Below are positions 45,001 to 51,000 of a stretch of DNA of 64,000 bases, piece after piece (position 1 is the first letter of the stretch; each line of letters begins with the position of its first letter). The stretch lies in the NCBI RefSeq assembly GCF_030013595.1, contig NZ_CP122769.1; one strand, 5' to 3'. The position numbers are program-made. The stretch comes from Escherichia coli. Its GTDB lineage: Bacteria > Pseudomonadota > Gammaproteobacteria > Enterobacterales > Enterobacteriaceae.

Positions 45001-48000
45001 CTTAATGAAAGAAACGAATTAGTTCCCTTGCTCACACAAAATAGTTTTGTTCCAGATTTCCGTGTTCGCCATGAGGGTCTCAATCCTTTTAACTATCTTA
45101 TTGATGGGCTGGAAAGGTTTTCGCATCACAGCGAATCTAGTAACTCACTGGAATCGACTGATGTATCTCACCAATACGATGAAATTAGCCGGTTAAATGT
45201 TCACCATGCACTTCATGCTTCTGGTTTAGTTCCTCAGGATGTTCACCTCTTTGTTACTTTACCTCTTAGCCAGTTCTATACTGCTTTAGGGGAAACGAAT
45301 ATTGAAAATATTCAGAGAAAAAAAGATAACCTGATGAAACCAGTTGAGCGTTATCTTGACGGTAAACGCTATTCTTTCAACGTTTTGTCTGTGACTGTTT
45401 TCCCTGAATCTTTACCAGCTGTGACCCGGGCAGATGAAATTGAGGATATTGCTTCATTTGAATCAAGTTTGGTAATTGATCTTGGTGGTACTACTCTTGA
45501 TGTTGCAAGTATTACTGGGCAATTAGAACAGATTTCGAAAGTAAAAGGTTTTGACCGTATTGGTTGTTCTATTGTTTACGATGAGATCAGCAGGTATCTT
45601 GAATCTGAGAAACTGAATACGAGTAATGCTTACATTCATCATCTTGTTGATAATCGTCATGATAAATCAGCTTTGAAGGTTGCAGAGGACAAGCGTGACG
45701 GTGTTTTTGATGCGGTAAACTCTGCGGTACAGAAGTTGCAAAGTAAAGTAATCAGAGCGGTTACACAAGTCGAAGAGAGGCCTCATAATGTTTTCCTTGT
45801 TGGGGGAGGTTCATATCTCATCGAAACAGCTATTCGTAAACATTTTGAAACGGCTAAAGTTATCATGGTAGACAATCCGCAGTTCGCATTATCTTTGGCA
45901 ATTGCTGATACTATTTATTCAGAATAATGAGCTAGAACATGGCTAAAAACCCTATCTCAAATAAGGCAGATAACGACCGGATTCAGATCCGGTCTTTCTG
46001 GATATCCGAAAGAAAAGCACCCTATGTTTATAGTTTCTTGAAAAAAACAGAACTTTCTCATAGGGGTGACCAACTGGATTTAATTAGGTCGGCTATTAGT
46101 ACCGGGTTGGTATTGAATAATTTATTTCCTGACTTGGCAAATTTTATAAATGGTTTAAACGAAAGATTAACACTTGCAGATCTTAATAGGTTTCTGAATG
46201 ATGGAAATACTATAGATACTGAACCTAAGCCTCCTATTAATGTATTGCTAGAGAATGTCTTAGATCAAAAGTTTAAGGAGTATTTAACACCTCTACAATT
46301 AGATAATTCAAAGCAGGATTCTGTTTCTGTAAAAGAAACCTTCCTTGTACAAAAGGAACATGCCTGCTTTGGTGTGAAGATTGAAAATGAGGGAAGCGAT
46401 ACCTCTATACCATCTGAAAGCCCACTTTCTTCAGATGCATCCAAAATTTCAAAAGAAAAGTCCATTTCCGCTGTGGTGCCAGTGCTAGAAAAAGTATCGG
46501 ATGAAAATCAAACCGCCTCCATAAGCATAAAATCTAAAGCTAAGGCAAACAAGCGACTGGCAACTTTGGCAAGATAGGTGAGAGACAGTACAATCGACTT
46601 CTGAGTTCCAACTTGTCTTACCAGGAAAGCCAGCATACTTGCTGGCCTTTTTTTTTGTTATAATAATTTCAGGCTTCACCTGGGTATGTAAAATTACTGT
46701 TAATGAAACGGTATTTTAGGTTAATTTGGGTGCTGTTACAGGAAGTGCGGATTTTTCCTAAATTTGTAAAAAACCTAAGAATTATCTTAATAAATCTGGT
46801 ACTTAATTATTATTTTACTTATAAAGTCTCTGTGCTTTAATGGTTATGTAAGGATTTTTTGATACCCTTATACCCGATGGACCTAAGGTCACTGACAACG
46901 ATGTTCATGTAGAATCTTCGTTTCTGTAATCCCTTTTGTTCTTGTCCCAAATGTTTGATTATTATAATAAAGGCTGATCGAATGCTATCTCGCAACTCAC
47001 TAATACATGGTTTACGCCGAGACCAGTTAATCGGAGTTCTGACTATTTCAGAGTTTCCGGTAGTTATGGTAGAAAGCCACTTCATTCAGTCTGAGGTTAT
47101 GGGAATAAAACCCGTAATTTTTAATATTGATGAGCTTCTTGTTTCTATATCCCCAATTTCCTCTCTTAAGTTCGATTGGGAGTGGGCCCCAGTTGATACA
47201 ATACTCATTGAAGTTATCATTCCACCTGTAGAGTCAGACCTTGTAAGTGCAGAAAATGACTTCCTCCGTGATTCTGGTATCGGCCATATCCAGTGCGAGC
47301 CTGGCGGAGCATCAATACGACGTACAGTTACCTTCGTTGGTGGAATAACCGCTGATAACTTACTGTATCAGTTGAGGCTTATGTGCGTAAGTGCGTTAAA
47401 ACTTTTAGGAGAGGAACTGGGGGATGAAGTCTAAGATTAGATATGTTTTATCTGGTTTTGTTGTGATATGTGCATTTGCTGGAGTTTATAAAATCCTAAA
47501 CAATGTTCCGGTTAAACCTGACCTTTTGGACTTCACTGGAAACACATTTAAAAAGACATCACTCTTCCTGCCATGTGATAAAAGCTCGCCTTCTTTAAAC
47601 ATTAAAATTGCTGATAACGAGAAAATCGTGATCAACGGCATCGCTTCAAAAGTAACTTTTGTTGAAAAGGCTGACCCCGTCAAAAGCCCTGGTTTTTGTG
47701 ATGATCTTGATCTAAACAATTCTCGCCTTGTACATACGGCATCTTACAGCATGGTGATTTCTGAAACCAAAACAGGATATACACTCTCAAATTTCAAGCA
47801 TCTTGCCGATGATGAATCATTAGGTGGTATGTGGTTTTATCAAAAGTGACTTTTTATATGGCAACTTCAGACTTCTCTCTTAAAAACCATAATGTAAAAG
47901 CTTTTGGTCAGGATGCAGCACTTGTCATTGAGATGAACAATGAAGATGTTAGCTCATCAAAACCTTCACCTTTTTCAAATGAGATTGATAATTATTATCT

Positions 48001-51000
48001 TACATTGCACGTCGCTCCGAGGAACGCCAAAAAAGATTATGACTGGGGCTCAAACCGTTCTGTACTTCTAAAATTGTCGACGAATGAAGTTATGCAGATG
48101 GCATCTGTATTTCTTAGAATCATGCATACTTTAAAAATTGATAAGAGGAAAACCTCACATCATGGCCACGTCGTATACAAAAATATAAGCGTTACCCCAA
48201 ACGAGAGGGGCGGTTTGTTGTTATCAGCAGGGATAGTTCCAGTCGATAAAGACGGCTTAAAACCCTTCATGCACATGGTCCCCGTCTCACAAATGGACTG
48301 CGTTAAAATTGGCCTCTACATACTTGGATATCTTGCTCAAAAAACGCCTTGGGTAAGCTCCGAGTCTATAATTACCGCGCTTCGCTTATCTGAAGCCAAG
48401 AATTCAAAATAGCGTATTAACATACGGAATACATGGAAAAATACAGGTTTTTTTAAATGTTATACGAACGGATATTTCTGTTTTTCATCGTAAAGTGAGT
48501 TTAATTTTGCTCAGAAAAACAGGTATTCGTCATGAGAAAATCAGGTTTAGGTTTAGCCCTGTTGTTTTCTTTAATTGCTCCGATTAAAGCGGTCTATGCC
48601 GAAGCGATTATGATTTCAGGAAAGCTACAGGCTGATTTGCCAGCCGTATCCTTTGACCCGGGGCCGGGCGACTTTGTTGCATACGTTAATTCTAACACTA
48701 TCACTGCCTCAGGTGCAGGCACAGCCTGTAATGTAACGGTTGATGATCGAGCGACTTCCTCTGTTGATAACCTCGTTTGTTTTTTTGAGTGGTTACCCAA
48801 TACCTTGGGATTTACTTCTAACGGTTTCACTCTTTCAGGCGTTCCCAACACCACCGGTGATTTAAAACTACCTTACAAGATTTCTTACTTCTCTGGTCTT
48901 GAACGGAAAAAAGTTGAAATAGTAAAAGGTGAATATTCAATCAAAAGTGTGGCACCGGTAAAACCTACTATCACCGGTCTTAAATCATCCCTGAACGGAT
49001 TAGTCTATGACGGCTTTTCTTTCAAATCGTATTTAAAGGATGAAGCGATCAAAGATATCGCTGTTTCTGTTGAGCCCCGCAATTATATTCAATACATCTC
49101 AATAGGTTCAGGCTCCGCCTGTGAAGTTCCTATTGGCGGAACTTCCTGTACCATTGAAGTTGGAAGCATTAAGGCCAGTGATACAGATGAACTTTTGGGT
49201 TCACGTGATATCACAATTACAGCAAACTCTAAGAATAATTATTTCGCACCTCCTGAATCCAAAAAGCTTGTTGTTAACTGGGATTATCGGCCTCCTGTAG
49301 TAGACCATACACTTTGGAATTTTACCGATGAGGCTAAAACAATCAAAGTAGGTGGCCAGGACATCTATACCGGAGCCAAAACCGTTGCTGTGGCCGTTAA
49401 GGTACCCCAGCAAGAAACAGAAGGTGAATGGTGGCTCCCAACAGCTATGTCGCTCACTATGACTCCGGATGGCGTGTTTAAACCGACGACTAAAGTGACT
49501 TTAGATGATGGCACTGAGATTGATTTCAAACAGTCCTGGGCAACCCCTTTACGTAGAACTTTACAGCCGGTAAGTGGACCTCAAAAAGTCGGTGATGAGT
49601 ACCTCTATATCTTCGACTTAACGGATCTTATAAACGGGTCCTACGCAGCGACTTTTACAGTAGAAAATACGAGCAAAAACTCTTCTACGTACACTGAGCC
49701 TGAAAGCAAACTGATGCTGTCTGATAACCCAACGCTTATGGTTCTCAAAGATGGGCAGGTATTAACTAAACGAGCACCCGTATACTTCCTGAACGAGATT
49801 ATCGTTGCAGCTTTCCAGGGGCAGGCTGGGGTTGCTGACATAAAATCAGTAACAATAGACAACAAAGTAGTTTCGTTAACACCTACAAATTATAGAGGTA
49901 TTTACTACCTGCCGGTTGGAGACGATTTAGCAGTTAATTCGGATCACGAGATTACTGTGGTGGCTGAAAACCTTTATGGAAAAAACGTTAATTTCAGTAC
50001 CGTTTTCACTTATCAACCTACTGGATTCACTCTCAAGAATCTGGAAAAAAACGTAACTCTTTACTCGCGTGTACGTCAGTATACGGACCTGCTTAGTCAA
50101 ACAGCTGGTGATAAATGCACTCTGTTTACCACAGAGGAAAATGCGAATGCTTACCTCGCCTGGTATGGGGAAAAATCAGATGTTACAGCATGCTACCCTC
50201 AGTGGAACAATGTCCCTGATGGGTTGGAGTTCTATTTTAAAGGACGTACCCCGGGTCTAACTGGATTCTTTAATAAAACAGGTGAGAATCTGCTCGACTA
50301 TCAAGTCTATATGATTAACGGGAAGGGCTCTAAAGCGGTATCCGCAAGGAATCGCCGTACTCTGACCACACAATTACCATACAACCCGATCATCTCTTAC
50401 AAAAAGAATAAAGTCATAGCTGGCATCAATCCGAACACTGCTCTGGCTTATACGACCGGGGGGAGGCCGCTCGAATATTAGCGAAGGTGGTACCAGCTGA
50501 CGTTACGATGATCGTCTCTCAAAACGGCTCTGAGGCTGTCAAAACGTCATTTAAAAATCGTTCCTCAAACAACGATGCAACGACCTTTGTACAAAGGGTT
50601 AAGGTTGCTGCTGCACCATTGTGGACAAAGAACGTCTTTGACATAGCTGTAGAATACTCAAAGGATCCAGAATTAAGAACTACAGACACACTCAACGTAT
50701 ATACGGTGCCTGATTTCAATATTCGAGCATCGATGGAAGTGGATGACAGAAAAACAGCCACATCTCTTGAAGTGCCCTTAAAGGTAACAGTGGGGCGTTA
50801 TAACAACTCCACACGTAAAAGTGCATTTGACCGTAAAACAATGGGAGAATGGGACGTCACGATATACTCGCAAAAAAGTGTATACGGCAAAGATCCAGAA
50901 ACAGGCCGTTATAAAACTACATACGAAAGAACTGCGCTGACTGAAGCATTGCCGGTCAATGATGCGGGCATTGTCGAAACCAAGATTAAAATTGAAAATA

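Follow-up and report, generated by a model that had tools for sequence, protein, structure and literature searches.

The closest described counterpart of the locus presented here is the AN operon of R27, a plasmid of incompatibility group HI1 (IncHI1), which consists of htdA, htdF, htdK, R0009 (rsp), trhP, trhW, trhU, and trhN (PMC7366339). In R27, a primary transcript was mapped over htdA-htdK; a terminator is predicted to follow htdK, and R0009 and trhP are preceded by internal promoters (PMC7366339). The R27 HtdA protein is an anti-activator that represses conjugation by counteracting TrhR and TrhY "at the protein level" (PMC7366339, PMC9410318), and 139 of the 181 expressed plasmid genes escape repression in an htdA mutant at 25 °C (PMC7366339). 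All three htd genes are listed as transfer genes of IncHI1 and IncHI2 in a transfer-gene catalogue (PMC10682676). Here we address three small genes in a stretch of 64,000 nucleotides (the window) of the Escherichia coli contig NZ_CP122769.1, whose source plasmid has an IncHI2 backbone. They had been described in a first-pass annotation as overlapping genes of unknown function.

Comparison of the region 46700-48700 with PLSDB by megablast revealed 1126 matching plasmid records, of which 678 reach 99% identity or more, and the region is 100% identical to hundreds of sequenced plasmids. Almost all matches are conjugative plasmids of the MOBH/MPF_F type, typed as IncHI2A and hosted by Escherichia, Salmonella, and Enterobacter. 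The three genes are annotated in them as "hdtA: H transfer determinant A" or "transfer repressor", "htdF", and "htdK / plasmid transfer protein", and the next genes downstream as rsp, trhF, and a TrbC-family gene. A more sensitive search also recovered R27, at ~70% DNA identity and in the same arrangement. Judged by identity to annotated IncHI2 plasmids, and by orthology and synteny with R27, the trio is the IncHI2 copy of htdA-htdF-htdK at the head of the Tra2 AN conjugation operon. This bears out the earlier suggestion that the genes correspond to the small determinants of transfer regulation reported from Tra2 of IncHI plasmids, and homologues of all three products were found in IncHI transfer regions. 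The genes are already catalogued, and nothing new is added here at the gene level. The regulatory role holds for htdA through the R27 literature, while htdF and htdK carry no documented regulatory phenotype in the literature searched. The parts of the finding that merit further work are the fold assignments of HtdA and HtdK and a palindrome spread over the plasmid backbone. The core features of the locus are as follows.

44890-46577: parM (product matching Pfam StbA_N/ParM_N, E 1e-66) and a parR-like open reading frame (ORF) of 212 amino acids (aa)
46982-47434, plus strand: htdA, 150 aa, pI 4.5, conjugation anti-activator ("transfer repressor")
47424-47849, plus strand: htdF, 141 aa, predicted exported protein
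47858-48412, plus strand: htdK, 184 aa, pI 9.3, putative divergent Whirly-fold protein

The trio is located, as first reported, between parMR and the large surface-protein gene (the Ig-like rsp, from 48532), with parM/parR before it and rsp-trhF-trhW-trhU-trhN after it in a MOBH/MPF_F IncHI backbone. It would represent the promoter-proximal transcription unit of an AN operon comprised of htdA, htdF, htdK, rsp, trhF/P, trhW, trhU, and trhN. With good confidence, the locus as a whole can be read as the AN-operon htd trio in which HtdA acts by sequestration, HtdF is exported, HtdK binds single strands, and translation is coupled. IncHI2 plasmids are major carriers of mcr-1, extended-spectrum beta-lactamase genes, and heavy-metal resistance genes, and HtdA holds down their transfer.

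The three ORFs are present as originally listed, at 46955-47434 (159 aa, TTG start), 47424-47849 (141 aa, ATG), and 47831-48412 (193 aa, GTG); the starts given for the first and the third are probably wrong. Because all HtdA homologues begin with MLSRNSLIHGLRR, and because the upstream extension is closed in R27 by an in-frame TGA, the start of htdA is placed at ATG 46982. Similarly, htdK is placed at ATG 47858, since this start is annotated in RefSeq and the R27 and IncHI1B proteins begin there. The corrected starts therefore yield products of 150, 141, and 184 aa. Three other candidates were rejected: TTG 46955 for htdA, as R27 has a stop codon in that extension; ATG 47066 for htdA, which would cut off the invariant N-terminal HGLRR motif; and GTG 47831 for htdK, which is not common to R27 or IncHI1B. 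Overlaps had been claimed at both gene junctions. The one of 11 nt between htdA and htdF stands, and is also found in R27 and pCF10, while that between htdF and htdK was a product of the upstream GTG choice, and a gap of 8 nt separates the htdF stop from the htdK ATG. A strong Shine-Dalgarno sequence of htdF, GGAGAGGA (plus strand), is located inside htdA. Translation of htdF would be coupled to that of htdA through the 11-nt overlap, and translation of htdK probably restarts 8 nt past the htdF stop codon.

Divergence from R27 at codon positions 1/2/3 is 0.11/0.08/0.43 in htdA, 0.35/0.29/0.59 in htdF, and 0.34/0.27/0.64 in htdK, and dN/dS in the same comparison is ~0.08 for htdA and 0.24 for htdF. 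Sequence comparison thus makes clear that all three evolve as genuine coding sequences under purifying selection. Full-length protein identity to the R27 counterparts (R0012-R0010) is 84% for HtdA, 51% for HtdF, and 53% for HtdK. Gene order is identical in the two plasmids, including the 11-nt overlap, parM/parR upstream, and rsp-trhF/P-trhW-trhU-trhN downstream, whereas htdK overlaps htdF by 4 nt (ATGA) in R27 instead of being separated from it by the gap. The order of htdA-like, htdF-like, and htdK-like genes followed by genes for a ~1400-aa Ig-like protein, the S26 peptidase TrhP, and a TrbC-like protein also occurs in very distant elements. The most distant members of the HtdK family (P0064 and P0067) sit in that order, and the htd block is therefore an old, conserved unit. 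The HtdK proteins of distant elements, diverged far beyond that of R27, match the HtdK profile at HMMER E-values of 3e-18 and 2.6e-10. Very divergent IncHI-like transfer regions with the order htdA-htdF-htdK-rsp-trhP-trbC were observed in the Logan contigs SRR27755640_5446 (L008) and SRR11816167_203 (L009/L010), which are metagenome/SRA assemblies; one of them has no parMR between the metallophosphoesterase operon and htdA.

A set of 5.8 billion proteins contains 21 clusters of the family of HtdA (16.6 kDa), each of them from Enterobacterales. Its AlphaFold2 model, built on an alignment of 12 sequences, is confident (predicted local distance difference test, pLDDT, 84; predicted template modelling score, pTM, 0.80) and shows the topology alpha-beta4-alpha-beta2-alpha. 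This is the alpha-beta sandwich of three helices and five to six strands that characterizes the type III chaperone/YbjN-like fold, and the size and acidic pI of HtdA are those of class I chaperones (about 130-150 aa, acidic). Among the structure-search matches is a class I chaperone of type III secretion systems (T3SS), ExsC of Pseudomonas aeruginosa (PDB 3kxy), although such chaperones have no sequence similarity to HtdA and the IncHI plasmid is without a T3SS. A likeness in fold extends to the YbjN/AmyR family and a DUF2170 regulator (PDB 5fr7, 8q8o), but HtdA fails their Pfam model and, unlike them, is plasmid-borne and restricted to IncHI-like elements. The model suggests that HtdA has the type III secretion chaperone/YbjN-AmyR fold, and a chaperone-like fold of this kind would fit the published role of an anti-activator working at the protein level.

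Conservation between IncHI1 and IncHI2 amounts to 84% for HtdA, about 78% for TrhR, and about 85% for TrhY, in comparison with about 52% for HtdF and HtdK. Because of the confident chaperone-like model, the small acidic profile, and a conservation level matching that of TrhR and TrhY, we infer that HtdA is a partner-binding protein which sequesters TrhR and/or TrhY, outside any curated chaperone family. It would bind these activators instead of DNA, in a manner resembling that of ExsC within the ExsA cascade or of FliT towards FlhDC. Two points weigh against this assignment. The HtdA family profile found no chaperone among PDB sequences, so that the likeness to chaperones and YbjN is one of fold only, and no demonstration that HtdA physically binds TrhR or TrhY was found in the literature searched. 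In addition, HtdA has no match among PDB sequences, nor one in Pfam or NCBIfam at E <= 1, including the curated families of the CesT, YbjN, and DUF2170 type. The fold assignment was not found in the literature searched, and it offers a testable model of how TrhR and TrhY are neutralised, by sequestration and not by operator binding.

Over 1000 Klebsiella plasmids carry relatives of TrhR and TrhY (R27, L013 8907-10219) at ~30% identity. With htdA as the query, DNA and protein searches matched only IncHI-like elements, those Klebsiella plasmids not having been searched for remote relatives of HtdA; the range of the activator pair may therefore be wider than that of the anti-activator.

HtdK is a basic protein. 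In a set of 5.8 billion proteins its family is comprised of 17 clusters, and when the family profile was run against 1.84 billion representatives, only 14 proteins were recovered, with none that linked HtdK to another bacterial family. Precomputed matches to Pfam Whirly (PF08536) exist for four of its homologues (P0023, P0028, P0036, and P0067). When the family profile was compared with all PDB sequences, each of the five matches at E <= 10 was a plant Whirly protein (StWhy2 at E 0.005, WHY3, WHY1, and p24), and the top matches in structure searches belong solely to the Whirly/PUR/MRP superfamily. The AlphaFold model has the layout beta4-alpha, beta3-alpha, alpha, which corresponds to the Whirly fold of two repeats, each a four-stranded sheet with a helix after it, and a C-terminal helix. 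With plant Whirly proteins (PBF-2/p24, WHY1-3, StWhy2) HtdK shares the motifs (V/I)(F/Y)...AAL.IE, L.LQ.AP, R.YDW, and LS..E, with YDW present in the form reYDW. It differs from them in being bacterial and plasmid-encoded, and in a score at or just under the Pfam threshold.

Several observations weigh against the Whirly assignment. The window protein scores 22.3 bits against PF08536 (E 1.3e-4), which is 0.7 bits short of the cutoff of 23, and the model is weak, with a low-confidence pLDDT of 56. The position of the KGKAAL motif reads GQDAAL in the window and SQSVAM in R27, so that its lysines are lost, while AAL is kept in IncHI2. Taken together, the searches and the model suggest that HtdK is a divergent Whirly-fold protein. 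Being basic and of this fold, it would therefore probably bind single-stranded nucleic acid, acting in the cytoplasm on single-stranded DNA or RNA, for example the transferred strand or a transcript. Domains of the sPC4/Whirly superfamily are known in bacterial defence systems (PMC12065111), and HtdK is therefore a new assignment and not a new kind of protein. The assignment, likewise not found in the literature searched, provides the first testable biochemical activity for HtdK.

The neighbourhood of a chaperone-like protein and a putative single-strand binder brings in a rival explanation. In Agrobacterium Ti plasmids, the gene for VirE1, a small acidic chaperone, stands beside that for the ssDNA-binding protein VirE2 in a locus of a conjugation-type type IV secretion system (T4SS). 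HtdA and HtdK would similarly be a small acidic chaperone-like protein and a putative single-strand binder in a T4SS locus. HtdA could then be a secretion chaperone engaged in a partner switch, with HtdK (in a pair like VirE1/VirE2) or RSP as its putative cargo, which we regard as improbable. Just as doubtful is the sequel, in which cargo leaving through the T4SS would free HtdA to silence TrhR and TrhY, coupling tra expression to secretion. The chaperone fold, small size, and acidic pI of HtdA speak for this explanation, as does the fact that class I chaperone genes of T3SS usually adjoin the genes of their cargo. Furthermore, R27 has htdA, htdF, htdK, and rsp co-transcribed, and distant IncHI-like elements keep them in the same order; HtdK is basic and a putative ssDNA binder of the Whirly type; and ExsC, which shares the fold of HtdA, operates through just such a switch. 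RSP is in fact exported through the IncHI T4SS (PMC6764697). However, the RSP translation carries its own Sec signal peptide, and a cytoplasmic chaperone of the T3SS type is thus not obviously required. HtdA is also conserved far above HtdK and HtdF, tracking TrhR and TrhY instead. The VirE pair itself has no homology to HtdA/HtdK, HtdA has a documented transcriptional role which VirE1 is without, and translocation of HtdK is only hypothetical. If the switch were true, IncHI tra expression would be fed back from actual mating activity.

The palindrome points to a plasmid-wide DNA-binding factor and is of more interest than the htd genes themselves. It is the 11-bp sequence AAAGTNACTTT, with the extended consensus (G/C)AAAAGTWACTTTT(C). 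The window contains 17 copies of AAAGTNACTTT, where 0.2 are expected, and nine copies of the 13-mer AAAAGTNACTTTT, where none is expected. Palindrome positions in the window are 4860, 7084, 13869, 13934, 20760, 24544, 25329, 28381, 30690, 42608, 44682, 47649, 47843, 49492, 51735, 52918, and 57994. A copy had been noted at 47649 in the middle gene; it is indeed present there, and a second one, missed by the earlier note, lies across the htdF stop (AAAAGTGACTTTT, 47842-47854), with its end 4 nt short of the htdK ATG. The two copies, with their flanks, are as follows.

47647-47661: CAAAAGTAACTTTTG, inside htdF, where it is read as S-K-V-T-F
47841-47855: CAAAAGTGACTTTTT, covering the htdF stop TGA (47847-47849) and the expected position of the htdK ribosome-binding site

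The site within htdF is kept in R27 and pCF10 despite near-saturated synonymous sites. The additional copy at the htdF/htdK junction distinguishes the window, of the IncHI2 lineage, from R27, in which it is absent at the equivalent position. The whole of R27 carries 46 copies, where 0.3-0.6 are expected, and enrichment across IncHI backbones is about 100-fold. In R27, 21 of the 46 sites are intergenic according to the incomplete PLSDB gene tables, as are about half of those in the window. Several intergenic palindromes, upstream of trhA, htdT, trhF/trhP, and an Ig-like gene, hold their position in both IncHI1 and IncHI2, but their flanks are not conserved. Two more sites lie between mobI and trhR in R27, and none was found in its acquired Tn10 and citrate/tricarballylate modules. 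The distant IncHI-like contigs L008 and L009 carry 5 and 7 copies per 12.5 kb, at different positions. From 63 sites, the symmetric consensus (G/C)AAAAGT(A/T)ACTTTT(C) was obtained. The palindrome is probably the operator of a dimeric DNA-binding protein that is encoded by the backbone and acts throughout it, and the literature search found no description of the palindrome strings in an IncHI context.

Other causes of the palindrome were considered and rejected. Conservation of the encoded peptide (K-V-T-F/L) is not sufficient, because almost half of the sites are intergenic, the sites are shifted in distant elements, and their flanks are symmetric. An RNA hairpin with a 1-nt loop is sterically impossible. 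A comparable system is that of the KorB operators (OB, TTTAGCSGCTAAA) of the IncP plasmid RK2. KorB sites are likewise palindromes of 13-15 bp with an odd central base, present in many backbone copies in promoters and genes, although their sequence is another one. An IncHI ParB binding the palindrome in the way of KorB is unsupported, as this ParB is of the P1 type (PF08775) and not KorB. No recognisable domain was found in TrhR and TrhY.

That HtdA itself is a classical DNA-binding repressor, acting on tra promoters and possibly on AAAGTNACTTT, is very unlikely. Such a repressor would agree with the database name "transfer repressor", with derepression of most plasmid genes upon htdA mutation (PMC7366339), and with the presence of a palindrome without an assigned binder in several tra promoter regions of the backbone. 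Yet HtdA is predicted to be a chaperone/YbjN alpha-beta sandwich without any DNA-binding domain, Pfam and NCBIfam searches found no helix-turn-helix or ribbon-helix-helix domain in it, the protein is strongly acidic, and the R27 literature has it acting on TrhR and TrhY as an anti-activator. Sequestration of the activators is thus preferred to operator binding.

The middle protein, HtdF, begins with an n-region containing K2, K4, and R6, followed by a hydrophobic segment of ~15 residues (maximum Kyte-Doolittle value 1.95 over residues 7-25) and an AFA-G motif with predicted cleavage after residue 19.

47424-47480, plus strand: predicted Sec signal peptide (or signal-anchor) of HtdF, residues 1-19, MKSKIRYVLSGFVVICAFA followed by G, from hydropathy and the -3/-1 rule

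The n-region, the h-region, and the A-G pattern are conserved in HtdF homologues. The membrane anchor formerly assigned to this protein is thus retained as an N-terminal hydrophobic segment, one more like a cleavable Sec signal peptide than a stable anchor. Two cysteines, C51 and C92, and the ASKVTFV motif (with the SKVTFV core) are invariant across homologues. The best reading of these features is that HtdF is an exported, disulphide-bonded accessory protein. It would be exported by means of the Sec signal peptide, stabilised by the disulphide, and would probably be a periplasmic protein that assists the mating apparatus or the export of RSP without being essential. Against this stands the absence of any Pfam, NCBIfam, or PDB sequence match and of detectable relatives outside its own family of 19 clusters among 5.8 billion proteins. 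Insertions in htdF and htdK studied by Lawley et al. in 2003 reportedly left transfer possible, so that the roles of both genes may be subtle. The idea of htdF and htdK as dispensable passengers, playing no part in transfer and kept only by their location in the operon, is hardly credible, even if no phenotype of either gene was found in the accessible literature and both families are tiny, given the clear purifying selection on both genes, the invariant motifs and cysteines, and a position and order kept in elements whose proteins are much more diverged than those of R27.

Non-coding elements around the htd genes include the following.

46629-46655, plus strand: terminator-like hairpin and T9 run 3' of the parR-like gene (7-bp stem with 5 GC pairs, then TTTTTTTTT)
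46745-46870, plus strand: conserved non-coding block upstream of htdA, with columns invariant in IncHI2, IncHI1, and IncHI1B
46955-46981, plus strand: translation-initiation block, TGATTATTATAATAAAGGCTGA, non-coding and directly 5' of the htdA ATG, with an AAGG Shine-Dalgarno sequence and a perfect TATAAT
48468-48530, plus strand: stable RNA hairpin in the htdK-rsp spacer, ending just 5' of the rsp ATG

The hairpin with the T9 run ends the parMR unit and separates it from the htd transcription unit; an analogous hairpin and T-run are also present in R27 and pCF10. Invariant runs within 46745-46870 read GATTT.TCCTAAA ... ATCTTAATAAA..TGGTACTTA.TTATTATTTTA ... TGCTTTA.TGGT ... TTTTTTG.TACCCT, and both flanks of the block are poorly conserved. 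Its conservation makes it a likely promoter or regulatory region of the htdA-htdK transcript, and a consensus scan upstream of htdA found no convincing sigma-70 promoter. The block at 46955-46981 is invariant across the same three lineages, with the in-frame TGA of R27 ahead of the ATG. The sequence between the two blocks is not alignable; the first is a candidate promoter/operator element of htdA, and the second a candidate element of its translation initiation. After htdK, a consensus scan found no canonical terminator. Folding of the RNA of 48395-48545 gave a minimum free energy of -31.2 kcal/mol (z = -3.3), and the hairpin in this spacer could influence how rsp is translated or how the transcript is processed.

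The next gene of the AN operon differs from its counterpart in pSTM6-275, an otherwise near-identical plasmid.

48532-52835, plus strand: rsp, coding for an Ig-like protein (with a hint of Big_3), frameshifted in the window

At about 50451-50457, the window has G6 where pSTM6-275 has a tract of G7, and through the loss of this one G the 1434-aa RSP falls into two ORFs, of 649 and 782 aa. The frameshift could reflect an error of sequencing or slippage at the homopolymer, or could truly inactivate rsp. An IS66-family element of 2.7 kb (54550-57250; tnpA 54635-55285, tnpB 55285-55632, and tnpC 55652-57223) interrupts the trhW/TrbC-like pilus-assembly gene and is not present in pSTM6-275. Because of this insertion and the rsp frameshift, the sequence suggests that the window plasmid is transfer-defective. 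In addition, diverged tandem repeats were observed at about 35600-39150, between trhC and parA; they give rise to numerous BLAST matches to pSTM6-275 that are offset, and to a difference in length between the two plasmids. This block may be a partition or incompatibility repeat region.

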